Notes: a model not told the origin generated them from the letters alone. A stretch of DNA of 58,222 nt from a virus (IMGVR_UViG_3300046009_003881:1-58222); one strand, 5' to 3'. Shown: positions 1 to 58,222, counted from the first letter of the stretch. Numbers and translations: made by a program.

Positions 1-3
1 GAA

Positions 4-129
4 TCTTTAGAGTTTCCATAATCAATTAACTCTCGTGCTTGTTCATCTAATTCTGCACACAAGTCTTTTAATATTTTGTATTCTAATTTTTCTTTAGCCA
101 TCTTGATTTGATTTGTGTCTCCTTAAGGA
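4..129. repeat. Terminal direct repeat, left copy (126 bp), identical to 58097-58222; indicates circular closure of the contig
   Basis: Direct comparison of both ends; only the first 3 nt (gaa vs ttt) differ. Confidence 0.95.
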
Positions 130-132
130 GAC
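117..132. repeat. Intergenic dyad GTCTC-CTTAAG-GAGAC (copy 1)
   Basis: Perfect 16-bp palindrome, 15 nt upstream of the - strand ATG at 101. Confidence 0.9.
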
Positions 133-146
133 GGTTTGTTTTTTGA

Positions 147-398
147 TCAGACAATCTTCCGAGAAGTTATGCCGTCCTTTATTATGGTGTAACTCTGATT
201 AAAGCTATGCCATTCCTTACCAAGGTATAACTCTGTCGGTTTCATAGCAACGATTCGCTTTGATTCGTACATCCTAACGTGTACGTTAACACTTCCGATA
301 CTAGTCACCATTCCAATTGGTTCACCATCACCGCCAATCAAGTACACTTCGTCACATTTGATGAAATGTCCTACAGTAAACATTGTATTGTCAATCAT
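147..398 (-). CDS. Hypothetical early protein (~83 aa)
   Basis: ORF 147..452; ATG at 398 overlaps the stop of the upstream gene (ATGA). Confidence 0.6.
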   Translation of the reverse strand: MIDNTMFTVGHFIKCDEVYLIGGDGEPIGMVTSIGSVNVHVRMYESKRIVAMKPTELYLGKEWHSFNQSYTIIKDGITSRKIV

Positions 399-622
399 TT
401 GATTATTTGTTTTAGTTCTGTTTTGATTCTCTTTGCTGTCTCTCCTCTCCAAGTGGATGCATTCGCAAGGAAGTAGATGATGATGGTCTTCGCGTCATCA
501 TCGTAGTACTTATCATTGATAGTTCGAAGATTGAACATCACTTCTAGGTAAGGAACAGCGCCATAGTTTACGTTCTTCCAATCGCTTGCAATCTCCATTG
601 CAATTTCATTAATGTTTCTCAT
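395..622 (-). CDS. Conserved small phage protein (75 aa; YFLANASTWRGETAKRIK motif)
   Basis: ORF track; motif recalled from small phage early proteins. Confidence 0.75.
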   Translation of the reverse strand: MRNINEIAMEIASDWKNVNYGAVPYLEVMFNLRTINDKYYDDDAKTIIIYFLANASTWRGETAKRIKTELKQIIK

Positions 623-641
623 AATAAATTTCCAGTTTTGT

Positions 642-657
642 GTCTCCTTAAGGAGAC
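642..657. repeat. Intergenic dyad GTCTC-CTTAAG-GAGAC (copy 2)
   Basis: Perfect palindrome between stop at 668-670 and ATG at 622. Confidence 0.9.
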
Positions 658-667
658 GGTTATTATT

Positions 668-838
668 TTATTCGCAGTCACATAGAAAGTCATCGTACTT
701 AAACTCTCCTGTCTCTATCCATTTGAGGACTTCTCCTTCGCAAGCATAGTCAATGCCTTCTTCGACAATGGTGTACCCTTGGTCGGTTTCAACTACCGTT
801 CCGCATAGGATGTATAGTGCTAAGATTATTTTTGCCAT
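668..838 (-). CDS. Small acidic hypothetical protein (56 aa, MAKIILALYILCGTVVETDQG...), not in ORF track
   Basis: Manual translation; fills the space between two dyad repeats. Confidence 0.65.
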   Translation of the reverse strand: MAKIILALYILCGTVVETDQGYTIVEEGIDYACEGEVLKWIETGEFKYDDFLCDCE

Positions 839-854
839 CTTGATTTTGATTTAT

Positions 855-870
855 GTCTCCTTGAAGAGAC
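855..870. repeat. Intergenic dyad GTCTC-CTTGAA-GAGAC (copy 3)
   Basis: Between stop at 874-876 and ATG at 838. Confidence 0.9.
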
Positions 871-873
871 GGT

Positions 874-1008
874 TTATTTGTGCCAAGCGCATCCATCTTG
901 TCCATACATCTTGGACTTTGAATAGTGCGAGTGATTAAGTGTGTGCTTACTGTTTGTGCAAGATGCTAGTACGATGACTGCAATTGCTAGTGCGATTAGT
1001 TTTTTCAT
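874..1008 (-). CDS. Small lipoprotein (44 aa, MKKLIALAIAVIVLASC...), not in ORF track
   Basis: Manual translation; signal peptide II with LASC lipobox. Confidence 0.7.
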   Translation of the reverse strand: MKKLIALAIAVIVLASCTNSKHTLNHSHYSKSKMYGQDGCAWHK

Positions 1009-1009
1009 C

Positions 1010-1222
1010 TTAGTATAGGTCATTAGGTTTTACTCCATAAACTTCATAGAAGCATCTCTCACATTCGATATCACTGCCGTCAGTCTTCTCGATGCATTGC
1101 TCTAGCTTACGTTCATTGTTCTTGTCAATCGTATCCGTGATTGTGATTACGATGATGACTGATACTGCTATCGCCATTGCTACAGCGATGAATACCATAA
1201 TCTGTTCTAAGGTCTGTCTCAT
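1010..1222 (-). CDS. Small membrane-anchored protein (70 aa, N-terminal TM helix, CxxC)
   Basis: ORF track; hydrophobic residues ~8-28. Confidence 0.7.
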   Translation of the reverse strand: MRQTLEQIMVFIAVAMAIAVSVIIVITITDTIDKNNERKLEQCIEKTDGSDIECERCFYEVYGVKPNDLY

Positions 1223-1425
1223 AATGTATTCTGTTTGATTTGATTTGATACGTAGTTATTGTAGTAGGATGTATACTTTGCGTACACTTTTCCGTATGCC
1301 CTATCCCATAGGCATTCATCACCGATGTGAATTTTTTCTCCCGTCAGAGAGCATTCTGACTCGAACTTTGCCCGAATCAAAATACTTTCCTCTGCTAGGT
1401 GTGATGGTCTTCTGTAGATGCTCAT
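1219..1425 (-). CDS. Hypothetical protein (68 aa)
   Basis: ORF track; ATGA overlap with next gene. Confidence 0.65.
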   Translation of the reverse strand: MSIYRRPSHLAEESILIRAKFESECSLTGEKIHIGDECLWDRAYGKVYAKYTSYYNNYVSNQIKQNTL

Positions 1426-1426
1426 A

Positions 1427-1672
1427 TTAAATTTCCAGGTTTTCGTCTCTTCGAATAGACGGTGTGCTGTAAGTCTTTGACCAATGGTATTTCTCCAAGG
1501 TCTGTTCGTTTATAACTTCAACTTCCCATCCATCGAATCTCAATGCTCTGTTGATGGAATTATGTTGCTTGTTGATTAGGTATCCGAATGCTTCGATGTC
1601 TGATTTCTGCTCAGAGAACGTCTTTCTTAGGACGTTCTCTTGGTAGATGTTAACTGTGAATGTGTTTGCCAT
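1427..1672 (-). CDS. Hypothetical protein (81 aa)
   Basis: ORF track; tightly packed, ATG 17 nt from dyad copy 4. Confidence 0.7.
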   Translation of the reverse strand: MANTFTVNIYQENVLRKTFSEQKSDIEAFGYLINKQHNSINRALRFDGWEVEVINEQTLEKYHWSKTYSTPSIRRDENLEI

Positions 1673-1689
1673 TTTGAGTTTGGTATTTT

Positions 1690-1705
1690 GTCTCCTTAAA
1701 GAGAC
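1690..1705. repeat. Intergenic dyad GTCTC-CTTAAA-GAGAC (copy 4)
   Basis: Upstream stop TAA (1708-1710) sits 2 nt from the dyad. Confidence 0.9.
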
Positions 1706-1707
1706 GG

Positions 1708-1842
1708 TTACTTTGATTTTTGAAAGGTTAGAAAGATTGAACTGAACAGTGACAGTACTGAGATTCCGAATAGTAGTAGGTCACCGATGAATGCACTAGC
1801 TATCAGACAAGCTAGTGATGAGATAAGAGCGAATGTTTTCAT
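1708..1842 (-). CDS. Small hydrophobic membrane protein (44 aa, MKTFALISSLACLIASAFIGD...), not in ORF track
   Basis: Manual translation; two hydrophobic segments; fills the space between two dyads. Confidence 0.65.
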   Translation of the reverse strand: MKTFALISSLACLIASAFIGDLLLFGISVLSLFSSIFLTFQKSK

Positions 1843-1858
1843 ATCGATTTGGTATTAT

Positions 1859-1874
1859 GTCTCCTTGAAGAGAC
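1859..1874. repeat. Intergenic dyad GTCTC-CTTGAA-GAGAC (copy 5)
   Basis: Upstream stop TAA (1877-1879) sits 2 nt from the dyad. Confidence 0.9.
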
Positions 1875-1876
1875 GG

Positions 1877-2494
1877 TTATTTTGTAAAGTTTAGTTTGAA
1901 GAATGCGAATGCTTGCTCAATCTCTTCGATTGTGTTCGTAGTGATTTGCTTCCCTTCTGAGTCTATTCTCAAAGAGACGTTTTTACCCATATCCAAAGCG
2001 CTCGCTCTGAATGAGAAGTTCATTATGTCGGATACCTTTTCTTTAACAGTGTTCTTGCTTTCGTCACCGTCACCGTCACCGTCACCTTCGCTTGTCTCTG
2101 CCTTGTTTCCATCAGCGAAGTCTAGCAGACCTTTGATTGACTTTTCCACACGTTTTCCCTCTGATTTTAGCTTGTCGCATTGGCTAATGAAGTCTTCCAC
2201 AAGCGCAGAGTTTTCTTCCAAGATTAAACCTGCATCCTTCATTCTGTGCAATTGTGCCTTTTCCCATCCGAAGATTGCCATCGAAAAGTCAGTTACTTTC
2301 CATTTAATACCTTCCGCTTTCAATTGCGCTTTGCCTTCATCAGATGAATACCAACGATATGCGCTGAGAACGTAGGGTGCTAACTCCAAACTCGCTTGAA
2401 ATTTCTTGTCTGATGCATTTGAGATTGCCTTTTGTAGCTTTTGAATTTTCGCAAGACCAAGTGTGTTTGCGATTGTTTTTGAAATGTTTGTCAT
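1877..2494 (-). CDS. First gene of the leftward early operon; hypothetical protein (205 aa) with an acidic GD-repeat linker
   Basis: ORF track; A-rich leader; tandem TCACCG units at ~2065-2086. Confidence 0.8.
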   Translation of the reverse strand: MTNISKTIANTLGLAKIQKLQKAISNASDKKFQASLELAPYVLSAYRWYSSDEGKAQLKAEGIKWKVTDFSMAIFGWEKAQLHRMKDAGLILEENSALVEDFISQCDKLKSEGKRVEKSIKGLLDFADGNKAETSEGDGDGDGDESKNTVKEKVSDIMNFSFRASALDMGKNVSLRIDSEGKQITTNTIEEIEQAFAFFKLNFTK

Positions 2495-2526
2495 TTGAAT
2501 AAAGTATTAAATTGTTATTGTATTGC

Positions 2527-2542
2527 GTCTCTTTAATGAGAC
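2527..2542. repeat. Dyad GTCTC-TTTAAT-GAGAC (copy 6); flanking bases inverted relative to other copies
   Basis: Reads cGTCTC...GAGACa instead of tGTCTC...GAGACg. Confidence 0.8.
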
Positions 2543-2545
2543 AGT

Positions 2546-2617
2546 TAGCGACAAGGAGTAGACTCGAACTACTCTACAGAATTATCGTCACAGATGCATC
2601 TGTTCTCCTATCTTGCC
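2546..2617 (-). ncRNA. tRNA-like structure (T-arm plus acceptor-like stem, no canonical D or anticodon arm)
   Basis: Minus strand GAGTAG-TTCGAGT-CTACTC; GGCAAG pairs with CTTGTC; ~70 nt span. Confidence 0.4.
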
Positions 2618-2670
2618 TAGGGTATGACTTTTTTGCGCATCACATCACCTATACTTGTCCTATACCAATA

Positions 2671-2680
2671 TGTCAAAGAA
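2671..2680 (-). promoter_or_regulatory. boxA-like antitermination motif TTCTTTGACA
   Basis: Resembles rrn/nut boxA (GCTCTTTAACA; GTTCTTTGA variants); lies in the leader of the long early operon. Confidence 0.35.
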
Positions 2681-2898
2681 TTTCGCCTTTATACTCGTCG
2701 CGTTTCTGAGTAGTCATCTTATCGGAAGTAACACCCTTTCAGCAGTTAGCTACTTCTATGTGTAGGTTGATGACCTAGTCCTTTGTATGTATTTTGTCGG
2801 ATGCATACTCCCCGTCCGTTTAGCATAAGCAAGGCACATCGTTAACCTTTTAGCCTTTAGTGTTTCAGTGACGATTCACCTTCCCTTAAAAGACACGT

Positions 2899-2906
2899 CA
2901 AAGATA
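2899..2906 (-). promoter_or_regulatory. Bacteroidota housekeeping promoter -7 box (TATCTTTG), early leftward operon
   Basis: Matches TAnnTTTG; upstream of all - strand early genes. Confidence 0.55.
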
Positions 2907-3098
2907 TGTCAGTGATGCTTCATTGATACTATTTTTTTCATCTTTCTGTGCCCATTGTTTAACCACTTGTACCCAATAAAATGCATTCTGTGACCAAAGT
3001 TTAAGAAATGCTAAGATCCTTAGCAAAAAGAGACGGGCAAAAAAGCGAGTTTTTAGAGTAATGGCGCAAAAAGTTTGAGTTTATCCAAGGTCTACTAC

Positions 3099-3139
3099 TG
3101 CCGTATCAGTGACGTATTTATGCTGTATCAGTGACGCAT
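3099..3139. repeat. Direct repeat TGCYGTATCAGTGACGYAT x2; core TCAGTGAYG also at 2865 and 2909
   Basis: Seen directly. Confidence 0.75.
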
Positions 3140-3210
3140 ACACCCCCCTCATATGCTCGCCAGTTTTTATGCTAAAATTATTAGCACACAAAATTTGAGT
3201 GACAAGATTC

Positions 3211-3226
3211 GTCTCCTCGAAGAGAC
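3211..3226. repeat. Dyad GTCTC-CTCGAA-GAGAC (copy 7), next to parS
   Basis: cGTCTC/GAGACg arms, 6 nt from parS. Confidence 0.85.
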
Positions 3227-3232
3227 GGGAAT

Positions 3233-3248
3233 TGTTTCACGTGAAACA
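3233..3248. promoter_or_regulatory. parS: parS site TGTTTCACGTGAAACA
   Basis: Exact match to the canonical chromosomal parS palindrome; extends to 18 bp (3232-3249). Confidence 0.85.
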
Positions 3249-3365
3249 AAACGGGGAACGGCAGCAGCACAGAGAGACGGGCAAAGCGGAGACGGGGAAC
3301 GGCAGCGAAACGTTGACAGCAACAGAGACGGCAGCAGCACAGCAGCAGCACAGCAGCAAACGGAA
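3243..3365 (+). repeat. T-depleted low-complexity tract of GAGACGG, ACGGGGAACGGCAGC and CAGCAGCA units
   Basis: Only two T in ~120 nt; GAGACGG at 3274, 3289, 3325. Confidence 0.8.
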
Positions 3366-3484
3366 TCGCCAAAAAGTAGCAGAGAAATTTTGCTTTTCAC
3401 ACCCCCACCCTTTGATTAGGATCGCTTTCGGATTGGGGGTCGGTCGATATAAAACGCTATATAGCCCAACATCTAAATATGTCT

Positions 3485-3492
3485 TATATTTG
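3485..3492 (+). promoter_or_regulatory. Promoter -7 box TATATTTG
   Basis: TAnnTTTG 13 nt upstream of ATG 3506. Confidence 0.55.
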
Positions 3493-3505
3493 TAAAAACT
3501 CTACA

Positions 3506-3697
3506 ATGAACGGACTCAAAGTAATTAACGGCAGACTCATTAATGAGCGCCCAAATGGATTAACTGGCATTCAGGAAGCCGCTAGAAATAGAAAGGAAAT
3601 GAAGCGTCAGGAAAAGATTAGTATGTACTCAGATGCATTCGCTTTAGGTGATATGAAGGCTGAAGTACGTGAAATGGCTATGGGGATCATCTCCTAG
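3506..3697 (+). CDS. Hypothetical protein (63 aa)
   Basis: ORF 3479..3697; start placed at the ATG downstream of the promoter; followed by a terminator. Confidence 0.7.
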   Translation: MNGLKVINGRLINERPNGLTGIQEAARNRKEMKRQEKISMYSDAFALGDMKAEVREMAMGIIS

Positions 3698-3946: not shown

Positions 3947-3954
3947 TATCTTTG
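3947..3954 (+). promoter_or_regulatory. Promoter -7 box TATCTTTG for groEL-groES
   Basis: TAnnTTTG with upstream TTTG; ATG 20 nt downstream. Confidence 0.6.
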
Positions 3955-3974: not shown

Positions 3975-5594
3975 ATGTCAGAACAGATGGGTTATTCTCC
4001 GAAGGACTTACACTTCGATGAATCGGCTAGAGAGAAACTTCTATCCGGTGTAGCAAAAATGTCTAAGGCGGTAAAGAGTACACTTGGTCCAAGTGGTAAC
4101 ACCGTCCTTATCGAATCACCAAATCACACGCACGGTATAACCGTAACCAAGGATGGAGTCACGGTGGCTAGGTCAATTGACTTGCTGGATCCTGTTGAGA
4201 ACCTTGCGGTTAAGATTATGAAGGAGGCTGCGGACCGAACGGCTACTAATGCCGGTGATGGTACAACGACTGCGATTGTCTTGACGGAGGCTCTTGTTAC
4301 AAACGGGGCGAAGTGGATTAGTAATGGATTGAACAGAACGCAGGTGCTGAGAGATATGGTGGAGGTGACGGGCTTAGTGGTGGACAATCTCAAGAAGCAA
4401 TCGATCAAGGTCAGCAACAAGACGCTGCTTGACGTGGCTACAATCTCTGCGAACAATGACAAGTCGATTGGTAAGATAATCTCGGACGTGTACCGCGAGG
4501 TGGGACGTAACGGTGTTGTCACTATAGAGCGATCTCAGAACGACGATACGTACGCTGAGACCACAACGGGAGTTAAGGTTGGGCGTGGCTATTCGTCACC
4601 GATGTTTATCAACGACCAGAAGAAGGACGAGTGTGTGTTTGAGGACGTGTTCGTGTTGGTATCGGATGCCGAGATACATAACGTCCTGCAGATCGAGAGC
4701 ATACTCAAGCCAATCATTCAGGAGGGGAAGAAGCTACTCATCATCGCTCCGTGTGGTGCGAACGTGTTGAACACCTTGGCTGCTAACGTGGTGAAAAATA
4801 AAATTAAGATCTGCGTCATCCAACCGCCATCCTTTGGCTATCGCCAGCACGAGCTGATGCACGACATCGCGGTGAGCGTTGGGGCAACGTACTTCTCGGA
4901 GAAGACCGGTGATGACTTGAGCATCATTAACTTCTCGGACCTAGGTCACGCTGCAAAGATCATCGTTGGGAAATCGGAGACGGTTGTCATCAAGTCCGAG
5001 CTGAAGAGCAAGGAGGACGAGATCAAGGAGCGAGTTGAGCAGATACGTGCGGCTTATGCGAACGCAAAGAAGAAAAGCGACAAGGACTTTTTGCTTGAGC
5101 GAATCGCCTCCCTGACGGGAGGGATCGGAGTGATCTACGTTGGTGGTAACACAGACCTTGAGCATAAGGAGCTATACGATAGGATTGACGATGCGGTGTG
5201 TGCGGTGCGTTCCGCTATCGAGGAGGGGATCCTTCCAGGCGGTGGCAAGGCACTTGTTAACACTGAGCTGTTGATACCGATCAAAGATACTGATAGCAAG
5301 GAGATGGCTGCTGCCAAGACAATTGTCCTCAATGCGGTACTCGAGCCGTGTAGACAGATCCTTGAAAACTCGGGGTATGACTTCGATACGGTCTATCCCT
5401 ATCTAGGAGATAAGCCACGACACGGGATGAACGTGAAGACCGGAGAGATGGGTGACCTAATTCAGATGGGGATCATTGACCCGTTGAAGGTTACACGTAG
5501 CGCGATTCAAAACGCAGTTAGCGTAGCCGTAACTATCCTGTCCACAAACGCGATCGTGACAATGGCTAGATCGTACGAGACAACAAATCTGTAA
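3975..5594 (+). CDS. groEL: Phage chaperonin GroEL/Cpn60 (539 aa)
   Basis: TLGPSG, VTKDGVTVA, GDGTTTA, IEEGILPGGG, GIIDPLKV motifs; no GGM tail. Confidence 0.97.
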   Translation: MSEQMGYSPKDLHFDESAREKLLSGVAKMSKAVKSTLGPSGNTVLIESPNHTHGITVTKDGVTVARSIDLLDPVENLAVKIMKEAADRTATNAGDGTTTAIVLTEALVTNGAKWISNGLNRTQVLRDMVEVTGLVVDNLKKQSIKVSNKTLLDVATISANNDKSIGKIISDVYREVGRNGVVTIERSQNDDTYAETTTGVKVGRGYSSPMFINDQKKDECVFEDVFVLVSDAEIHNVLQIESILKPIIQEGKKLLIIAPCGANVLNTLAANVVKNKIKICVIQPPSFGYRQHELMHDIAVSVGATYFSEKTGDDLSIINFSDLGHAAKIIVGKSETVVIKSELKSKEDEIKERVEQIRAAYANAKKKSDKDFLLERIASLTGGIGVIYVGGNTDLEHKELYDRIDDAVCAVRSAIEEGILPGGGKALVNTELLIPIKDTDSKEMAAAKTIVLNAVLEPCRQILENSGYDFDTVYPYLGDKPRHGMNVKTGEMGDLIQMGIIDPLKVTRSAIQNAVSVAVTILSTNAIVTMARSYETTNL

Positions 5595-5599
5595 TCAAG

Positions 5600-5857
5600 A
5601 TGAAAGCAATTGGAAAAAATATAGTGATCAGAGTCGTTGACGAAGAGATCACAACAGCATCGGGACTACTGCTCTCAGCCGAGGACTCCAACCAAATGCG
5701 CTACAAGCGTGGTGTGGTGGTTAGCCCAGGCACAGAGGTTCCCTTCATCAAGGAGGGCGAGGAGATCTACTACGAGAAGGCGCAGTCGTTTACTATGCTG
5801 ATCGATGGTGAGCAGATGACAATCATCAAGGAGCGTGACGTGGTGCTAGTCCTCTAG
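5600..5857 (+). CDS. groES: Co-chaperonin GroES/Cpn10 (85 aa)
   Basis: TTASGLLL mobile loop, GVVVSPG, IIKERDVVLVL; adjacent to groEL. Confidence 0.92.
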   Translation: MKAIGKNIVIRVVDEEITTASGLLLSAEDSNQMRYKRGVVVSPGTEVPFIKEGEEIYYEKAQSFTMLIDGEQMTIIKERDVVLVL

Positions 5858-6319
5858 CTCGTCCTGCCTAGCCTTGTCCTCAGAGTTTTTCTGACGGATC
5901 TTTCTAAGCTCGGCATTCATTCCCTTGATGTAGTGTCTAAACACCTTGTCGGTGTAGGGAACACGCTTTAAGAACATTGGGTTATTACTTGGACTGACGG
6001 GGATTTCTTCCCCGTTTAGTTTTTTATAGAGGGACCGTATAGCTGCTTTGGTCTTGTAGCTTGTCTCATAGATTGCCCTGGTGTGGCTGTTGCGGTTCCT
6101 GAAGACAACGATCCATCCGTCCTTGAGCAGCCTGTTGAATCTGTTTGGGTCCCATCCCATTAGGGTGTTGTATCCGGCAAAGTCCTCCCTGCTGAAGTAC
6201 TTTTCTGAGTAGAGGAACAGCAGGATGTCTAGATCCGACTGAGTTAGCTTGTACTTTACTTTGATGAATTGGCGCACTACACGCCAGTACTTTAAGTAAT
6301 CGTATTGATATGATTCCAT
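5846..6319 (-). CDS. Putative winged-HTH regulator (157 aa), the only antisense gene in the late arm
   Basis: LTQSDLDILLFL...RFNRLLKDGWIVVF pattern; own TAnnTTTG box at 6336-6343. Confidence 0.65.
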   Translation of the reverse strand: MESYQYDYLKYWRVVRQFIKVKYKLTQSDLDILLFLYSEKYFSREDFAGYNTLMGWDPNRFNRLLKDGWIVVFRNRNSHTRAIYETSYKTKAAIRSLYKKLNGEEIPVSPSNNPMFLKRVPYTDKVFRHYIKGMNAELRKIRQKNSEDKARQDELED

Positions 6320-6335
6320 TGAATTTAATTTATTA

Positions 6336-6353
6336 CAAAAATACATATCTTTG
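6336..6353. promoter_or_regulatory. Back-to-back divergent -7 boxes: TATTTTTG (-, 6336-6343) and TATCTTTG (+, 6346-6353)
   Basis: Quasi-palindrome TTACAAAAATACATATCTTTGTAA between divergent ATGs. Confidence 0.6.
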
Positions 6354-10100: not shown

Positions 10101-10319
10101 ATGAACAATACGCACGACCTACAAGACTCAATTGCCGCAGCTACAGCAGGAACCTCTGTAGTTTCTGCCTTAGCCTCTAAGGCAACGGAACTTCAGCCTA
10201 TAATTTCTGCATTTTCAGGATTAATAGCTATAATCACTGGCGTATTCGCGATAGTCTACTACGTAAAGAGACTGAATAAGCTCGACGATGAGAACGGAGA
10301 GAGTATTGAGGACCAATAA
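10101..10319 (+). CDS. Putative holin (72 aa)
   Basis: TM helix followed by charged tail; directly upstream of the endolysin. Confidence 0.55.
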
Positions 10320-42300: not shown

Positions 42301-43644
42301 AACTCAGATAGCTTTCAATCAAACAGAGTTTACTCTGGTCAGACGCTTAGTGGAAAATTAATCGATTCCAATCTGCTATCTCAAGTTGCAGGAATGAGTG
42401 ATACCAGAGCGAAGGCTGATGTAGTCAATAGAATGCAGCAGATTTATAATATGACTGCGAAGAAGTACGTGAACAGCGTAGAGTTCATTGCTGATACTCT
42501 TATTTCTACTCCGGATAAAATGATTATCCGTCCAATTTGGTTCGGGTCATTTGCTAACGAGTTCAAGAAAGTGACCGGATCAAATGTAGACTTCGAAAAG
42601 ATTGCTAGTAATGACAAGGCTTATATGGAAAAGTATAAGGATGCTATTGCTAGATCTAGAGAGGTTGCTGATGACGCAAGCGTTATGGCTGGTGCTTCTG
42701 ATAATGCATACACCGGAATATTGAAGGGTGTTATAAAACCTAATCAGAATGCGTTCGCTAGATCAATGAACATCTTCAACAACTATATGACTAGGTTCGT
42801 TACGTATGAATACCTAGCATCTAGAACAGCTATAAACGCACTAGTTGGAAATGGAACTATCTCTCCAATGAGAGGAGCTGCTATACTAGCAGGGGTAACA
42901 TCAAGGATGATGGTGTACACTATGCTTACAAAGGTTCTTGGTGGTACAATGACATCACTTGTTCTTGGCGCTTTAGGATTCGAGTACGACGATGAGGATG
43001 AAGAGAAGACAGCGCTTCAATTGGCTGGTCAGTCAATTGGTTCTGCCCTTACGTCATTGCTAGTTGGTAGGGACTTCGGTAACGTAGCTAGAAATATACT
43101 GAACTACGGTGTCGAGTATGTAAATGCTAACTACCTAGAGGACTTGAGAACTGGAGAGTACGATCCGTATAAGGATAGTATGCAGATGTCTATCATTCCG
43201 CAAGACCCAAGCAAAATGAAGGCTGAGAAGATGATTCAAAGTGTCGCTGGACCGCTTGCTCCTGCTATTGGAACTGGTATTTTTGTTATCAAGAAGATAG
43301 CAGAAGAACCAAAGAAGGAGAAGGAAGCTATCGAGCGAAGTGATATAGAAACAAATGTTATGATTCCGCTTAAGATAGCAGGCACACTCGGACTAGTTCC
43401 ACTGTACAAGGACATCAATAAGGCAGTGAATGACTACACTTATCAGTCGCTCAGAGATGATGACAAGGGTTCTAGCGAACCACCTATGAGCAAGGAGCTG
43501 ATGAAGAAGTACTATCCAGATCTATACAACAAGATGTACAAATCAAATCCTGCAAAGGAGCAGCAAGAGAAGAGGATTAAGGATCGCAAGGAGATGATAA
43601 AGAAAAGAAAGGAAGACGCAATAAAGAGCAAGCTTCGCAGGTAG
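33352..43644 (+). CDS. Giant internal virion/polyvalent protein (3430 aa): glycine-zipper TM region, ParB/Srx-like insert, zincin metallopeptidase domain
   Basis: GxxxG repeats ~35530-35680; DGNHR 37429-37443; HEFGH 39235-39249. Confidence 0.8.
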   Translation: MDEKIVKYYEYLKSKGLDVPPTVEQFQSTLQDKASSDKYYAYLQNKKASMPNLDIAPDANSFYNTLKKKEEQAPQAQPQSQQGQEQPQSGMASPSAAPLSVSRYGGQGRYAGGLTAENIDQFTFALDQQRQSIQQGQQAYDDLRVINQEDIAPRQDVLTVPKQVAVQKEPKKTLVVPTGTVYDLPLDEYSIKYFENKANQIEQQRIENEKQKALTASNLLISQDPIFNQDLQTINKALIDMEEEEALPILNDKFSKYGFTFVRSGIGDEITVRTSEGKNSVVINFDPFTGITEASEAERLRSFIKSYAQSPDVKKDEDFMASAIRAKQIRNKGRDNGDGTVSTVIFTSFEEDGKFKVIPTLFPKDPNNYTTKKDSWMELGFEDALSTARQRGEIFEFKTKEEAERFAEGEWKDINKADIEADNFYKSRGLNYSNIKQAKEEYLKLRDKMDFIEEQLAFERGDEYITDESLRKKYALLMDGDFLTEDVKAQYENLKKQEEQLRGVLFDSDVMTAMEDFDAYAGKKRDESASEAAKLNREATVAFDALDNASLQTLGVSINDLTAFVPKTSEQKQYADALLKKYAEVQITKGMAADKYYLSKTYLDAAIDKEVNYEFIENYDGFINSFKSGLANGSGVNQILLAAIGKKDVENPEDLAEIAAIVAESQKEMAQLSGYKSRVLNRWQNAVGADEAMAVVLNDPAEWMLTLASYSISQMLPYGSWIVPSSVATGAAIGAGYGAATGSLAAGVGAIPGAATGAAIGATKGFQAGMALTGFATEYGNAILQAATEKGYDLTNPQDVEAALRDASVWKEGGRRGTLRGIPIAVVDYLSAGLAGNVMRVGKTAPLATRAAAYVGERVVFDTLAEMTGEALAQVSEGRDNISWAEIVEEGAGGMGSNTSNLAFKSAMSVRKNKNISIANDLTDVRNIATERSSDARISKWANNMQALGQIDEDVNQRIQENISLRNEAKQLLNIGISGKIANRLTGNVDAVTTRVMELLAAKKELSLSASRREVYRDKIASINNEIATISETRTIPTEKDMVNLDAILGYKRSDVSEYMIDGRRYTKEEFTRRITGMSKERLKKSKVQVKGDNELIAMIQNEVGKQINTTQQDAVQEQTASEVSLQPEAGVSEEVAQRESQAESEVVTEEVEQEKVSVLDSPETISRSILSLNPEEKSTVTFLREDGTEIGIDGNETEVADAYDIAVKTNENERTNAQRSVIQAVETLLADEIQADQLDTILTTSQLSTTVSDLEAVEARRQEALSNIISEESTEENRRPNGSIGTQGFDPTQMKDLIKFLNKKLNLSIDEQLFEGDKIKPLIDFIKGNKNLVEKIKQYVKTDPIEVSRMPDGSLHFRDGNHRANLLNLIGSNTLPTIEFGQRNKIDEINAEYDAELGAISQSDQDTRFRLDAQKEGKADEKIVKTMKAMPTEEKQFVEPSGLYDEVTVDAIGESKSSTKEQDSADLVKALGLKSIDELNKRIEDFNGMPVILGMSDILGSGTYTDSMGNPMKVNGGILFGAFGGNTDLAWAGVQRNGAENQMNEAIALYNKNKELFDRLWEEGKLPMGHVPMVIMRMGDTAVNSNEAAFRWLAPYVASLPTKNRKDALNSLKDVLSKKVDNDSAASWLVDFNSSVTSGEFSTKEEIVEALEEMLASEETQSIEKKRKSVETVLNAVKKKKTTDEAVEYLENKTERILSYIVLNHIKNNKITTLDGLLNSVVEESNKRAKGDNAAMSLPVRSFVFSLVYSKGSPKTPSLAPIKALMNGVKNFKSEYFTTDFLYNAIGEPSMLKAKQGDTVAVVGIDVLNPEVKATNHPNYGFGPKGRLIATISNPTQGVEVFPEFKAKASRIFKKTAGKKASYPDPEKVAAQVGGAFFVDKAFRGARIMKGQIDDLNLLIGKLRFAFPNVSVATTQEEFDEILKDETVRKRVKEGKVIYGVTKGGKIYINPSERSLATPIHEFGHIWIDYLRSDASGKKGTELLKKGLSLVEGTKEHKEAIKKYGDTELAKEEALVELMATKGSTIINSAKKAGFLSWMNATFKFIKETFVANSKSVTYDQIKTLSIDEFINIGLADLFKGSEVSAKFSASQAEQASKARLSAGNNVNSIASIIERGRASGISDKAIAISLTRRGFTADEIDAAFKGATTTLSRSTLSEETLPGYDALMAIVREEAKSAIEKGRTETNEALDSLIEIIKSEDIYINATNVQQEQLIRAVRRAFKKREKSAPSAYTIVTGISNIKKITIAEADLIKKQLMDYERGAKNALKAWTAKGKALSNEMRELASKKKITLIQAAVVMKKFSRVNMFDEDSVDDFITYMKKVFSDAEYADRISKLSSLIPKAKNNIDKKIGIARNLQAPLRRMLAINPSFVPDDVLSTYENVVKMFAQSGAVITPAERSSVIDDVNKVLLSVDEKSNKITEMSMILDEFENKVFDENGVLNYSETTKAMLKDDLITVEDYEFMRDNKRSINKTIKDANKVVSQADQDAKAAKQQEEKKALIDSIKRSSIVLSDMFSEDEKKLGKDLAELIKTDAIESLTNSELNNLYKLIQTINNGYMPSYAYRVKSKLSSIINAAPVTQAISKSGIAVISKAVAGAKSLFSKKRDTVLQAIRRGTLLDIDKTLGNFMSRPIFDNIFRKSTQAQAKLKAGTNSIRQRMDDAAEAVLKSLNNNGNAFVESSFKMYAYMIQLEYESNKGSKSVNPASKFIDATVAAIKKGKTKFSKKDTAILEKIKKEYSTNGEIDIKKLYDSFNSAEKKAIRVAQAIDKSIVDKAEFTAVVIRGEKFTAINNHIHLNTIKEDNKSDIASASQVVTDYQNSTRPSSKSMSLVSRTGEVSPLNFDFYAAVKKGSTSVLVDYYMTPAIREAKQTIKQVEKNLEEKQDGITEDEQKVINAISMAYDEATENLLLNSFVDDSITAKAINILSKNGYRAALAGIPRATAELASNLAYATIVDLNAMATAYKYRDIIMSSAGLDVMLNSDSFQSNRVYSGQTLSGKLIDSNLLSQVAGMSDTRAKADVVNRMQQIYNMTAKKYVNSVEFIADTLISTPDKMIIRPIWFGSFANEFKKVTGSNVDFEKIASNDKAYMEKYKDAIARSREVADDASVMAGASDNAYTGILKGVIKPNQNAFARSMNIFNNYMTRFVTYEYLASRTAINALVGNGTISPMRGAAILAGVTSRMMVYTMLTKVLGGTMTSLVLGALGFEYDDEDEEKTALQLAGQSIGSALTSLLVGRDFGNVARNILNYGVEYVNANYLEDLRTGEYDPYKDSMQMSIIPQDPSKMKAEKMIQSVAGPLAPAIGTGIFVIKKIAEEPKKEKEAIERSDIETNVMIPLKIAGTLGLVPLYKDINKAVNDYTYQSLRDDDKGSSEPPMSKELMKKYYPDLYNKMYKSNPAKEQQEKRIKDRKEMIKKRKEDAIKSKLRR
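36692..36823 (+). CDS. Nested +1-frame gene: basic 43-aa MPFKS-type protein
   Basis: MPFKSKQQVKFLYSQKPELAKKWRKENPKQNLKSLPKKSSKKK*; A-rich leader with A at -3. Confidence 0.65.
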   Translation: MPFKSKQQVKFLYSQKPELAKKWRKENPKQNLKSLPKKSSKKK

Positions 43645-43658
43645 TCTCTTCAATGAGA

Positions 43659-44039
43659 CTACTTGTGCTTGACGTACTTGATTGCCTTCTGCTTGTCATA
43701 GTAACAATGGAGTTCAGTCGGACTGTGTGGATCACCACCCATTCTGACTGCTCCGTTCAGCTTATCTATCTGTGCGTACATTATCCCATCGTCGCAGGAC
43801 CAAATCACAATGGGCTTAATCCTTTTGTCAACGAGCCTTGACACGTAATTGATTGGTATTGGAAGTGGGTACGCATTGTAGATCATTTTAAATCTAGGAA
43901 CCACGTAGACATAAGCCTGCGTTATACCATCCTTATTGGTAATCCTATAGAACGGATCAGCAAATACGTAAGAGAACCTTGTGATCTTTAAGAATAAGTC
44001 TATAGCTACAGACTCTCTCCTCTTAAGTTCGGATGTCAT
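43659..44039 (-). CDS. Hypothetical protein (126 aa), possibly a degenerate nuclease fold
   Basis: ORF track; last gene of the - strand arm. Confidence 0.65.
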   Translation of the reverse strand: MTSELKRRESVAIDLFLKITRFSYVFADPFYRITNKDGITQAYVYVVPRFKMIYNAYPLPIPINYVSRLVDKRIKPIVIWSCDDGIMYAQIDKLNGAVRMGGDPHSPTELHCYYDKQKAIKYVKHK

Positions 44040-51872: not shown

Positions 51873-51888
51873 GTCTCTTTAAAGATAC
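51873..51888. repeat. Degenerate dyad GTCTC-TTTAAA-GATAC (copy 8)
   Basis: One mismatch to consensus; between exonuclease stop and pseudoknot. Confidence 0.65.
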
Positions 51889-51894
51889 GAATTT

Positions 51895-52641
51895 TTAAAG
51901 CGTTTCGTTGATAAAGTAATTCTCCACATCCTCAGTGGCACTTGCTCCGAAGTACTTCTCGTGTACCTCAACAGCCATACGCACCTTGTCCTCTCCACCC
52001 TTGATGAACTCATCCGAGCAGTGGTAGATGCCGACTTGCTTGGTCACCTTGTCGATGGCATAGAACGCCAGTGGCTTTCCGAACAGTCGTTGGTAGATGT
52101 AAGCTTGGCTGTCGTAGTTGTACTTCTTTGCCGACCATCTGAACGATGCGATGTCTGATGTGGTCTTAAGGTCAATGAGGAAGTCATTGCACTCGATGTC
52201 CGTCTTCCCCTTCCACATACGTCCGCAGATCTCACCGATAGCAGGCTTCTCTACTTGATTGCCATCAGCGTAGATGTCATCAAAGAACTTGATGTTCTTC
52301 TTCATCACTTGCGTCAGCCCAACGATGTTGTCGTACTCGCTCTTGAGCAGAGCAAAGTCTAGGTTGTTGACGGTAACAAACTCCTTGTAGATGTTTGTTG
52401 TTCTCGTGCTACAGTCCACGTACATTGTGTCGGCTGCCTTCTCGGGTTCAAGAAGTAGTTGGTGAAACAATCTCCCCTCAGCGAAGTTCTTATTGTCATC
52501 CCTTGTCTTGCCAAAGAGTTGGGGATTTGAAAGGAGAACCCCAATGTCTGAGTTGGATAGGTAGAACTTACCGATTCCACGGTAGTACTCTGAATCATCC
52601 TTGAGTTGTTCTATGATTCGAGATTTTTGTTCTTCTAGCAT
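51895..52641 (-). CDS. PD-(D/E)XK exonuclease, RecE/ExoVIII-like (248 aa)
   Basis: LSNSD, WKGKTD, IDLKTT, YDSQAYIY motifs. Confidence 0.85.
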   Translation of the reverse strand: MLEEQKSRIIEQLKDDSEYYRGIGKFYLSNSDIGVLLSNPQLFGKTRDDNKNFAEGRLFHQLLLEPEKAADTMYVDCSTRTTNIYKEFVTVNNLDFALLKSEYDNIVGLTQVMKKNIKFFDDIYADGNQVEKPAIGEICGRMWKGKTDIECNDFLIDLKTTSDIASFRWSAKKYNYDSQAYIYQRLFGKPLAFYAIDKVTKQVGIYHCSDEFIKGGEDKVRMAVEVHEKYFGASATEDVENYFINETL

Positions 52642-52642
52642 C

Positions 52643-53335
52643 TTACTTTGTAGTGATTAGTGATTTGATTTCTTTCTTAACCGCAGCCTTGAGTTTGTAC
52701 TTGCGTTCCAATTGCTTGATGATTGTGTCGTAGTCAAGGGATGGATTCGAATCGATGTACATCTTTACCTTGGACCAGTTTGCATCGTCGATAGTTAACT
52801 CAACTAGCTCAGACGTTTGTGATGCAGGGGCTACTTGCTTTTCCTTTGGAGTTTCCTTAGGTGTCTGCTCAGTACTCTCGGGCATATCCTCACCAGCATA
52901 GATGTACAATCCGAGACCGAACATCGCAAGGTTCTTAGTAAGGCATCTCATAATTGTCTTGTTGATGTCGGTCATTGTCGCTGCCTCAACCGTCTTGTCA
53001 ACATCAGCTCGCTTACCTGCTATCCACTTGGTAGACTTGTAAGTGTACGGCTCAGACTTGAGCGCCTTGTTAGCACCGTCCATCACGGGTAACCACATCT
53101 CGTGACTAACTCCGTCAATCTCTACCTTGGTGTATACCATATACCCCGTCAACGGATCGTGTACGTATGGCAATCCATTGAACTTTACCACCTCGTAGTA
53201 GCAGTCGTTGTGAATCTTCTTTACCTCAGCCCAAGCCCAAGCCCAGGATAGGTAGGTCAAATCGTTTTTCTTTTCTGTCTTGTCGTTGACATTGATTCCA
53301 CTTAGAATCTCAAACACTGTCTTGTCTTGTTCCAT
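52643..53335 (-). CDS. sak: Sak (Rad52-like, DUF1071-type) single-strand annealing protein (230 aa)
   Basis: LTYLSWAWAW, MWLPVMD, DINKTIMRCLTKNLAMFGLGLYIYAGED. Confidence 0.9.
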   Translation of the reverse strand: MEQDKTVFEILSGINVNDKTEKKNDLTYLSWAWAWAEVKKIHNDCYYEVVKFNGLPYVHDPLTGYMVYTKVEIDGVSHEMWLPVMDGANKALKSEPYTYKSTKWIAGKRADVDKTVEAATMTDINKTIMRCLTKNLAMFGLGLYIYAGEDMPESTEQTPKETPKEKQVAPASQTSELVELTIDDANWSKVKMYIDSNPSLDYDTIIKQLERKYKLKAAVKKEIKSLITTK

Positions 53336-54109: not shown

Positions 54110-54335
54110 AGCCGAAGAAGTTTAGTGTGTTGATTAGTTCCATATTATCTTCCTGCTCGTAGTGGTACAGCGTGTCTAGGTAGTTGAAGAACCTTTGCTG
54201 CTGTGATTCAGATAGCATCTCGAACTGTCTCATTGAAGAGACATCGTCACCAGATGCTTTCTTCTCAATGATGTCATCAAAGAACTCGTCAATGTTATCG
54301 AATCCATATTCAAGTAGAAGCTTTCTTGTTACCAT
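54096..54335 (-). CDS. Acidic hypothetical protein (79 aa)
   Basis: ORF track. Confidence 0.7.
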   Translation of the reverse strand: MVTRKLLLEYGFDNIDEFFDDIIEKKASGDDVSSMRQFEMLSESQQQRFFNYLDTLYHYEQEDNMELINTLNFFGYDRL

Positions 54336-56033: not shown

Positions 56034-56049
56034 GTCTCCTTGAAGAGAC
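56034..56049. repeat. Intergenic dyad GTCTC-CTTGAA-GAGAC (copy 9)
   Basis: Stop 56052-56054 two nt away; ATG 16 nt away. Confidence 0.9.
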
Positions 56050-56343: not shown

Positions 56344-56359
56344 GTCTCCTCAAGGAGAC
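56344..56359. repeat. Intergenic dyad GTCTC-CTCAAG-GAGAC (copy 10)
   Basis: Stop 56362-56364 two nt away; ATG 16 nt away. Confidence 0.9.
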
Positions 56360-56361
56360 GG

Positions 56362-56823
56362 TTAGTCATTTTCTATTTCGTACTCTATTCCATTTACCAC
56401 AATCGTGAACTCACTCTCCTCACTTGGAATCCATTCCGTATAGCAGAAGATGTCCTCGTTGTATGCGTAGTCAATTAACTCATCGTCACTCTTAGCAAGT
56501 AGCACGTCCTTGCCTACCTCATCGAAGTCATATGCTCCGCTGATTATGTCAATCCTTAGTTCGATAATAGTATCGTCCTTCGTCTCGGAGTAGTACGTTC
56601 CATCGCCCCATACGTACCCTTCATTCATCAGTCTGTCGCTGATATCACATCTTCTTGCGAACATCTCTACCCTTGGTAGGTCAGATAGCATTTGACCAGA
56701 GTATAGGATGTGATTGATTGCATCTTGTTCGCTCACGATTGATGCGCTGTCACCTTGTACCATCACGTACTTCGTGCCGTCTTCATTGCGTACATCGTAC
56801 GCTGCTACTAGAATTGATTTCAT
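56362..56823 (-). CDS. Highly acidic hypothetical protein (153 aa)
   Basis: ORF track; D/E-rich. Confidence 0.75.
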   Translation of the reverse strand: MKSILVAAYDVRNEDGTKYVMVQGDSASIVSEQDAINHILYSGQMLSDLPRVEMFARRCDISDRLMNEGYVWGDGTYYSETKDDTIIELRIDIISGAYDFDEVGKDVLLAKSDDELIDYAYNEDIFCYTEWIPSEESEFTIVVNGIEYEIEND

Positions 56824-57068
56824 TTGTCTTTGTTTAGAATTTGTATGTCATCGTATCCAACTAAGTTCACCAGTTCATCTAGTAAACTCAAGTACTCATT
56901 CCTTGTTGCTTCTCTGCACTCAGCGATGTACTCTAGGCTGCACTCTGAATGTTGACCTATGTGCTGATAGGATAGTACTCTTCCGTTCCCTTCGTGTATG
57001 TTGAGGAACGCAGCGAACACACTGCTTTCTTCCTCGGGATGGACTAAGAATAATGTTTCTGTTCCCAT
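56820..57068 (-). CDS. Conserved phage protein (82 aa, SYQHIGQHSECS...EY..LL.EL...GY)
   Basis: ORF track; recognisable motif. Confidence 0.75.
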   Translation of the reverse strand: MGTETLFLVHPEEESSVFAAFLNIHEGNGRVLSYQHIGQHSECSLEYIAECREATRNEYLSLLDELVNLVGYDDIQILNKDK

Positions 57069-57084
57069 TGCTATTGTGTATTAT

Positions 57085-57100
57085 GTCTCCTTGAAGAGAC
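57085..57100. repeat. Intergenic dyad GTCTC-CTTGAA-GAGAC (copy 11)
   Basis: Stop 57103-57105 two nt away; ATG 16 nt away. Confidence 0.9.
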
Positions 57101-58194: not shown

Positions 58195-58222
58195 CTTGAT
58201 TTGATTTGTGTCTCCTTAAGGA
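58097..58222. repeat. Terminal direct repeat, right copy; ends inside dyad copy 1
   Basis: Identical to 4-129. Confidence 0.95.

Follow-up and report, generated by a model that had tools for sequence, protein, structure and literature searches.

We analysed a viral genome of 58,222 nucleotides (nt) (IMGVR_UViG_3300046009_003881:1-58222, hereafter the window, by which we mean the whole stretch at its full length), in which a 16-bp palindrome, the dyad 5'-GTCTC-Y-T-YR-A-R-GAGAC-3', is repeated between the genes of the early region. The reading that we favour, tentatively and with slightly less than an even chance of being right, is that the protein encoded by the first early gene (1877-2494) uses the dyads as an array of operators and in this way controls early gene expression. 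A role of the dyads as punctuation of the early RNA comes second in our judgement and is clearly in use in relatives. The palindrome is real and is more than an ordinary hairpin; most likely, it is not a dedicated gene-shuffling device.

Copies of the dyad in the window

The motif GTCTC-N6-GAGAC is present in 12 exact copies in the window against 0.06 expected, a number reached by none of 100 shuffles, and the exact copies are restricted to the early/middle unit and its junction. In eight of them, which we call canonical, the coding (minus) strand reads AACC-GTCTCYTYRAGGAGAC-A, in the form AACC-GTCTC-Y-TYRA-G-GAGAC-A; on the plus strand, the GAGACGGT flank was found eight times forward, never in reverse and never in a backwards control.

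An earlier note on this DNA, made from the sequence alone, had listed eight co-oriented copies at 117, 642, 855, 1690, 1859, 56034, 56344 and 57085. All of them are at those positions, carry the claimed coding-strand sequence AACC-GTCTC-N6-GAGAC-A and take all four of the central 4-mers that had been named (TTAA, TTGA, TCAA and TCGA), and the unit spacings of 169 and 1125 bp are correct. We also confirmed the claimed distance to the next ATG, which is 16 nt in five copies, 17 nt in one, 19 nt in one and 15 nt at 117 (this last value was read from the printed sequence, the open reading frame (ORF) there running past the window end), and the TAA stop codon, which in five copies ends 2 nt ahead of the dyad. 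The two window ends share about 124 nt, and the position 58210, equated with 117 in that note, is for this reason a truncated duplicate of the same copy. The variants at 2527, 3211 and 51873 exist as well, the first two being among the 12 exact copies, and the inventory lacked three sites, at 1445, 43644 and 54227. A search allowing one mismatch adds 51873, 1445 and 23698, of which the last is probably a chance match, because the control search also yields one.

Solitary half-sites, CCGTCTC, accompany the full dyads: four are in the 300-bp control region by the dyad at 3211, and the half-site total is 17 against 4.4 expected. At 43644 the dyad occupies precisely the junction at which the late and the early/middle block converge. 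All positions are given in Table 1.

Fixed arms and a variable core

The closest relative of the window is a metagenome contig (L115/L116), 92-97% identical to it, with which 12 orthologous dyad pairs could be compared. Eleven of these pairs agree in the arms, and six show differences in the inner six bases; at 855 the two orthologues are exact reverse complements of each other within unchanged flanks. The unit therefore looks symmetric. The orthologous copies all have T at position 7, A at position 10 and a pyrimidine-purine step at the centre; over 127 instances the centres are TCAA (56), TTAA (29), TTGA (16) and TCGA (9). Variants within one genome are altered on one side only, as seen at 1445 and 51873 of the window and at 21271 of contig L010. 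What is conserved is the sequence and not the structure alone. The L116 counterpart of the variant at 2527 is canonical and is followed by an extra ORF.

From this symmetry the earlier note had argued for a dimeric site and against a plain RNA hairpin. A regulatory, dimeric site is supported by the invariant arms, the flippable core, the half-sites, the intragenic copies and a co-occurring early protein that is modelled as a homodimer (see below).

Dyads of other types in related phages

We retrieved 80 related loci by means of GroEL. Many of them have an early-region dyad of their own, with other arms (GTGTCT, GTCTGT, GTGCAC, GGCTCG and GGGGGC) and the geometry 5+6+5, which is constant in every dyad type found; some loci have no dyad. 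The form GTGTCT-TCAA-AGACAC is the dyad of a large group of relatives. In MW202828.1, an uncultured podovirus that is the nearest named record (primase identity 77%), the GTCTC dyad was not found, and there is a 16-bp palindrome of its own, GTGTCGTTAACGACAC, of the GTGTCG type, in 14 exact copies against 0.67 expected. They are all within the early/middle unit, most of them 16-23 nt ahead of an ATG, and at least 5 of the 14 are inside annotated coding sequences (CDSs). No dyads were found in the cultured Elemovirus phage, which for that reason does not offer itself as a test system.

Over 34 distinct cores 97% of the cells pair, a value partly built in, because the cores were picked by requiring perfect arms, and five of the six pairs vary on both sides. 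Such two-sided change of the arms would be explained by a hairpin just as well as by a co-evolving dimer site. The earlier note had taken identical gene order among relatives as evidence against shuffling, and compensatory stem changes with a free loop as evidence for an RNA hairpin. Gene order is not identical; the two-sided changes, together with the nearly free dyad centres of locus L043, are compatible with the hairpin and the dimer site alike.

A perfect dyad of the own type is also found inside the GroEL CDS of six relatives (L037, L039, L060, L062, L068 and L080), and not in the other GroEL genes. At this spot the six have Thr in place of the Val that is usual, and the rest of the palindrome is due to silent changes.

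A motif search of IMG/VR gave 23 single matches, and the three records that could be checked have one copy each. As to a host repeat or a mimic of a CRISPR repeat, we rejected this candidate after two bacterial genome scans, in which the matches listed were scattered singles and no arrays. Among these matches, repeats occurred only on one contig from a Cytophagales bin (4 copies at one locus and 1 at another) and on one from a Flavobacteriaceae bin (2 copies), both of which are probably binned phage DNA. Repetitive extragenic palindromic (REP) elements of enterobacteria are about 35 nt long, occur in hundreds of copies, have a dedicated transposase and act at both the DNA and the RNA level, in the latter case by stabilising mRNA. 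The dyads resemble them as conserved palindromes between cistrons or at operon ends; unlike them, neither dyad was a multi-copy host element among the matches listed in the two scans. We found no description of the motif in the literature, including the text of the Baltic Flavobacterium phage paper, which is not proof of absence.

The first early gene and its product

ORFs were clustered over 37 early regions. The family of gene 1877-2494 was found in 16 of the 17 loci with four dyads or more, in none of the 18 loci with two or fewer, and also in two loci with three dyads. Mapped on the GroEL tree, the dyad trait requires 8 changes; well-supported branches force no fewer than 5 of these, and the association between gene and dyad is therefore not the effect of a single clade. 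Across dyad types the protein, which has 205 amino acids (aa), is 26-37% identical, the corresponding value for GroEL being 60-73%.

The structural model of the 205-aa protein (mean predicted local distance difference test score, pLDDT, 82.5) consists of a helical N-terminal domain with an isoelectric point of 8.9, a disordered acidic linker and a small C-terminal domain. Modelled as a homodimer, it scored 0.71 against 0.00 for the best control; 20 of 30 proteins solved as one-chain pairs attained this mark, as did 1 of 23 that were solved as single chains. The homodimer runs agreed in at least 88% of the contacts, with a partner pLDDT of at least 81. The model thus supports self-association of the protein, without demonstrating binding. 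An ESM Atlas search with the same protein returned unnamed viral clusters only.

The proposed operator array

Under the reading that we favour, the product of 1877-2494 would accumulate as a homodimer and bind the double-stranded dyads between the cistrons downstream of its own gene, and the same protein would also occupy the control-region dyad and the CCGTCTC half-sites. Binding would tune or shut early transcription, as a roadblock or a silencer, in the manner of KorB at its OB sites, of the phiC31 repressor at its conserved inverted repeats (CIRs) and of the L5 repressor at stoperators. We infer three things here, namely that the protein binds nucleic acid, that this is DNA rather than RNA, and the sign of the regulation. 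All copies being transcribed, the dyads would also fold as a small RNA stem-loop, which relatives have extended into a 3'-terminal hairpin before hammerhead ribozymes, and the repeated dyad plus leader would double as a landing place for gene gain and loss.

KorB of the IncP plasmid RK2 is a dimer of the ParB family which acts on about a dozen conserved palindromes, some near promoters, others far from them or intragenic. The likeness to the dyads, in the window and in relatives, is that of a conserved multi-copy palindrome with copies away from promoters; the differences are that no ParB or KorB domain was detectable in the 205-aa candidate (Pfam and PDB sequence searches), and that the phage sites are 16 bp long and nearly all between cistrons of one operon. 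In the temperate Streptomyces phage phiC31 the CIRs, of about 17 bp, are bound by the repressor in multiple intergenic copies of the early region. They share with the dyads the form of multi-copy palindromes in early intergenic spaces, whereas no lysogeny module was seen in the window and our candidate belongs to a family of unknown function. The stoperators of cluster A mycobacteriophages, bound by the L5 repressor, number more than 20, are intergenic, co-oriented and genome-specific, and are asymmetric 13-mers bound by a monomer, reversal of which abolishes repression, according to PMC9283540. The eight canonical dyads are likewise intergenic and co-oriented, with a lineage-specific site sequence; unlike the stoperators, they have a symmetric core that flips between orthologues, and their binding and repression are predictions.

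Several observations weigh against the operator reading. In locus L023 dyads are present and a homologue of 1877-2494 was not detected. Since gene and sites are neighbours, block exchange could still explain their association, and the co-occurrence could have arisen if two alternative early regions were each inherited as a block. No DNA-binding family was detected in the 205-aa protein, for which searches of Pfam, PHROGs and PDB sequences were empty, and Foldseek with its model gave nothing at E <= 0.001. The best rows of a structural alignment (VIA-align) were the DNA-binding domains of CHD1 (Z 5.4) and KorB (Z 4.6; rmsd 3.5, 93 aligned), followed by Spo0J (Z 4.3) and DnaA domain IV (Z 4.1), all of them within the noise level stated for the tool. 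Moreover, the dyads have asymmetric flanks (AACC before, A after), the copies are co-oriented and they are tightly placed between stop and ATG, a pattern that an RNA element would produce as well; in the GTGTC clade the centre on the sense strand is CA in 36 cases and TG in 11. To the same side belong the extended stems of relatives, their G.U bias and their position by hammerheads, described in the next section.

A wider form of the proposal, which we regard as unlikely, is that of a previously undescribed module for control of the early operon. It would consist of a new homodimeric nucleic-acid-binding family, always encoded by the first early gene, co-evolving with 16-bp operators; the sites would serve in DNA control, as the apex of hairpins by hammerheads and as a landing pad, and the whole would be swapped between phages as one piece.

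Lakes and seas harbour large numbers of phages that infect Flavobacteriia and other Bacteroidota, and to our knowledge almost nothing has been reported on the timing of their gene expression. If the operator reading is true, a large group of GroEL-encoding phages of about 60 kb governs its early operon by one small protein and a dozen sites. In that case, the lineage-varying sites would be simple, portable and orthogonal regulator-operator pairs for Bacteroidota genetics.

RNA hairpins and hammerhead ribozymes

Another explanation, which we consider possible but doubtful, places the function of the dyad in the RNA. The sense transcript would form a stem-loop of 5-6 pairs between the cistrons of one long early mRNA, which, once the mRNA is cleaved, would mark or protect the upstream 3' end and would also leave the A-rich leader of the following gene free of pairing; it might be recognised by a sequence-specific RNA-binding factor, perhaps the same early protein. 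In 51-nt folds of the eight canonical sites the hairpin is present in every minimum-energy structure (-7.3 to -9.5 kcal/mol), and the leader is unpaired in five of the eight, with parts of the flank or leader pairing at 642, 855 and 56034. The tight placement after the stop and before the ATG and the single promoter-like box of the early region agree with such a role, and the late operon has at its 3' end a hairpin of 13 pairs, formed by the junction copy at 43644 (-21.6 kcal/mol on the plus strand, -15.5 on the minus strand).

Further points come from relatives. There the stems are extended by at least 4 pairs in 32 of 127 copies, and the flank extension of the GTGTCT group totals 188 pairs against 84 +/- 12 with shuffled flanks. 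On the sense strand the extensions contain 38 G.U and 9 A.C, and the extended stems stand 0-10 nt ahead of type III hammerheads, the order being always dyad, ribozyme, leader, ATG. Stem extension, G.U bias and hammerhead adjacency, with the extended junction copy at 43644, show that these copies, if not others, do have a role in the RNA.

Hammerheads were found in the early regions of many related phages of about 60 kb. The Rfam hits in relatives have E values down to 6.6e-7, remaining below the gathering score, with the full model covered, and in the aligned sequences a core of CUGANGA and GAAA is visible. Of 36 hammerhead-like matches obtained with a home-made script, one of which looks spurious, 23 have such a dyad at most 45 nt upstream, and nearly all the others inspected have a different, GC-rich hairpin upstream. 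A hammerhead candidate, as a script match only, also precedes the first early gene of the cultured Elemovirus. Hammerheads flanking single phage genes have been proposed to cut long transcripts into gene-length mRNAs, as stated in PMC3088659. The dyads bracket one or a few genes of a long transcript in the same way; unlike those elements, the dyad is non-catalytic, its arms are fixed in sequence and no hammerhead was found in the window early region at E <= 5 with RF00008 and RF00163. The link with hammerheads makes these relatives a natural system for combined DNA-level and RNA-level punctuation of a phage operon.

For the window itself the same explanation meets several difficulties. A generic hairpin needs no fixed sequence, and here the arms are invariant while the loop varies and is even flipped between orthologues. 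In RNA hairpins recognised by proteins the reverse is usually seen. The eight canonical copies have no flank extension, the first flanking pair being always C opposite A; the stem seems to be lengthened where an RNA hairpin is clearly needed, and not in these eight copies. Solitary half-sites and intragenic copies would be senseless for a processing site, and the window early region lacks a detectable ribozyme. No U-tract was found after the hairpin on the sense strand, where the tails are A/C-rich, whereas the late block of MW202828.1 ends with a canonical hairpin followed by a T-run. We had also tried the sixth-pair G.U wobble as proof of a sense-strand RNA, the pair being U.G in 6 of the 10 printed early and control-region copies of the window (3211 included) and never C.A. 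This pattern does not hold, because 3 of 12 copies in L115 are C.A on the sense strand.

Gene gain and loss at the dyads

The comparison of the window with L115/L116 revealed three gene-sized indels (Table 1). Each of them starts in the leader, at most about 15 nt to the 3' side of a dyad, and the opposite end is dyad-free in every case; given that a dyad is present at about a third of the early junctions, the one-ended association has a chance of about 0.04. Between L040 and L060 two breakpoints are about 50-70 nt past dyads, and between L062 and L068 the breakpoints are hundreds of bases from any dyad. The absence of a dyad at the second end and the distant breakpoints of L062/L068 therefore argue that the units are not dyad-to-dyad cassettes. 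The claim of the earlier note that gene cassettes are shuffled at the dyads is supported only in part, by the starting points of the indels and not by their other ends. From these alignments the dyad plus leader appears to be a favoured insertion point, an association that bears on how phage early regions acquire genes.

It is improbable, in our opinion, that recombination is the primary function of the dyads, as in a hot spot of integron-like type or of the type of the promoter early stem-loop (PeSL), with the repeats offering homology for Sak and the exonuclease and cassettes of 1-4 genes being exchanged. Besides the indels and the L040/L060 breakpoints, such a function is favoured by the GroEL dyad of a subclade and the flipped cores, which can be read as a hint of copy-to-copy conversion, by the interleaving of dyad-type and dyad-free early regions on the GroEL tree, and by the Sak and exonuclease genes, both of which we found in the window, as the earlier note had claimed. 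A chance of about 0.04 is suggestive only, however, and mere homology, provided by a repeat of 16-21 nt, needs no invariant arms, fixed geometry or co-occurring protein. No recombinase is annotated in MW202828.1 and none was seen in the 27 window ORFs scanned, its absence being not fully checked; nothing points to site-specific recombination. Integron cassette arrays depend on an integrase and on attC sites of at least 57 nt; the dyad element differs from them by its length and by the lack of an integrase in the same annotation and ORFs. In T4-type phages the PeSL, which combines a terminator and an early promoter in an intergenic stem-loop, is described as a point of genetic exchange in PMC4122927. 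The dyads are similar to the PeSLs as conserved intergenic stem-loops in a variable early region with gene gain and loss at the motif, and differ in that no host-type promoter box is present between dyad and ATG and that the indels touch the dyad one-sidedly. We favour recombination as a by-product and not as the purpose of the dyads.

Promoters and terminators around the dyads

No host-type -7 box is present between a dyad and its ATG at any copy, and a scan for sigma-70-type promoters found none at the dyads. Before the early genes the box TATCTTTG at 2899-2906, which we take to match the Bacteroidota consensus TAnnTTTG, is the sole one on the early strand, so that the dyads lie inside one long transcription unit; the early region, judged by its sequence, looks like one long transcript. 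On the plus strand the same box is found at 3947, 6346, 11256, 22356 and 30375, 5-28 nt before ORF starts, GroEL included, and these copies are probably host-type promoters of the phage.

An intrinsic terminator has a U-tract on the transcribed strand, and at the dyads T-rich tails occur on the antisense strand only. The dyads on the plus strand could accordingly be regarded as hairpins with T-rich tails which terminate antisense transcription directed against the early genes, and in fact, of the 7 sites in window 1-3600 that resemble terminators, 6 are plus-strand dyads, against 2.1 +/- 1.4 in shuffles. We consider this very improbable as their function. The dyads are terminator-like on that strand because the upstream gene ends are A-rich, the T-rich tail being their complement; the copies of MW202828.1 have no such tails, the stems have 5-7 pairs only, and genome-specific arms, half-sites and the linked gene would be left unexplained.

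Hairpin promoters of coliphage N4, which serve an injected virion RNA polymerase, have a stem of 5-7 bp and a loop of 3 nt. The layout of the window resembles that of N4 in its late gene of 3430 aa and in a conserved hairpin at a fixed distance before early genes. That the dyads are promoters of this kind is nonetheless extremely improbable: their centres have 4-6 nt, not 3, with a geometry of 5+6+5 or 6+4+6 in all copies, the copy at 43644 has no gene after it and others are intragenic, and host-type -7 boxes precede both plus-strand genes and the early unit. The giant ORF, tried as the virion RNA polymerase, gained no support from its sequence, for which Pfam, PHROGs and the PDB gave no polymerase match. 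By eye we spotted in it the motifs HEFGH (zincin-like) and DGNHR (ParB/Srx-like), which presumably are features of polyvalent virion proteins, and it is only about 29% identical to its MW202828.1 counterpart, against 77% for the primase. It is likely a fast-evolving polyvalent virion protein.

Genome layout and control region

The window is an IMG/VR virus record rated 96% complete. Megablast against a phage collection did not find close DNA relatives, and the protein matches suggest hosts of Flavobacteriia type. The window represents an uncultured podophage of about 58 kb with a host of Bacteroidota type. A plus-strand block from about 3.5 to 43.6 kb contains GroEL, virion proteins and the 3430-aa ORF. 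The minus-strand genes run from 2494 leftwards over the join and down to 43659, and comprise small unknown ORFs, Sak, a PDDEXK exonuclease and a primase/helicase.

Table 1. Positions of dyads, indels, genes and ribozymes in the window (unless a relative is named)
Feature	Position	Strand	Remark
Canonical dyad (AACC-GTCTCCTTAAGGAGAC-A)	117..132	-	ATG 15 nt downstream
Canonical dyad	642..657	-	ATG +19
Canonical dyad	855..870	-	ATG +16; L115 orthologue is the exact reverse complement
Canonical dyad	1690..1705	-	ATG +17
Canonical dyad	1859..1874	-	ATG +16
Canonical dyad	56034..56049	-	ATG +16; extra ORF right after leader in L115
Canonical dyad	56344..56359	-	ATG +16
Canonical dyad	57085..57100	-	ATG +16; following 82-aa gene missing from L115
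Decayed dyad	1445..1460	-	One arm mismatch, flank ACC, ATG +19; canonical in L115
Variant dyad	2527..2542	-	Flank AACT, A/A at sixth position; 32 nt before first early gene
Dyad in non-coding control region	3211..3226	-	6 nt from parS-like palindrome; no ORF after
One-mismatch variant dyad	51873..51888	-	Intergenic
Exact dyad without AACC flank	54227..54242	-	Within ORF; conserved in L115
Junction dyad	43644..43659	+	Convergent junction, after 3430-aa late gene; stem extended by flanks
Solitary half-site CCGTCTC	3030..3036	-	Control region
Three co-oriented solitary half-sites CCGTCTC (3274, 3289, 3325)	3274..3331	-	In repeat-rich stretch
First early gene, 205 aa	1877..2494	-	No known family; candidate dyad-binding protein
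Indel: 82-aa gene	56820-57068		In window, missing from L115
Indel: extra ORF in L115			After dyad matching 56034
Indel: extra ORF in L116			After dyad matching 2527
TATCTTTG, Bacteroidota-type -7 box	2899-2906	-	Likely early promoter
GroEL	3975-5594	+	Protein match
Late ORF, 3430 aa	33352-43644	+	No family match
Protein with DnaA C-terminal-like helix-turn-helix	44210-44698
PDDEXK exonuclease	51895-52641	-	Minus-strand block
Sak	52643-53335	-	Minus-strand block
Hammerheads in relatives, type III and one type I	L039 6287-6341, 4384-4439, 1455-1510, 5800-5849; L037 7128-7182; L062 7118-7172, 4187-4242; L238 ~10137-10190

Inside the plus-strand block there is a lone reverse gene (5846-6346, minus strand), with about 1140 database relatives, some of which are called MarR-family regulators by some sources. 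We rejected this MarR-like gene as the dyad binder, because its presence ignores the dyads (80 of 83 loci).

In the divergent control region a perfect TGTTTCACGTGAAACA, which we take to be the canonical bacterial parS site, is present at 3233-3248, 6 nt from the control-region dyad. It is kept in the close relative (L116, 1296), and no more than three of the 87 other loci checked have so much as a copy with 2 mismatches. The site hints that the phage DNA may engage host ParB or persist in a plasmid-like form. The adjacent stretch 3250-3400 is rich in repeats, with GCTGCTG units and units containing CCGT; it has an iteron-like look and is possibly an origin of replication.

Between the likely early promoter and the first early gene, at about 2550-2700 on the minus strand, there is a tRNA-like stretch, in which a T-arm and an acceptor-like stem of 8 pairs surround an insert of about 150 nt. 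ARAGORN found no tRNA in the window and Rfam gave no match at gathering score, this stretch being called by neither. In relatives, the control region or the early unit contains tRNA genes, at 9637-9710 of L080 and also in L037 and L062.

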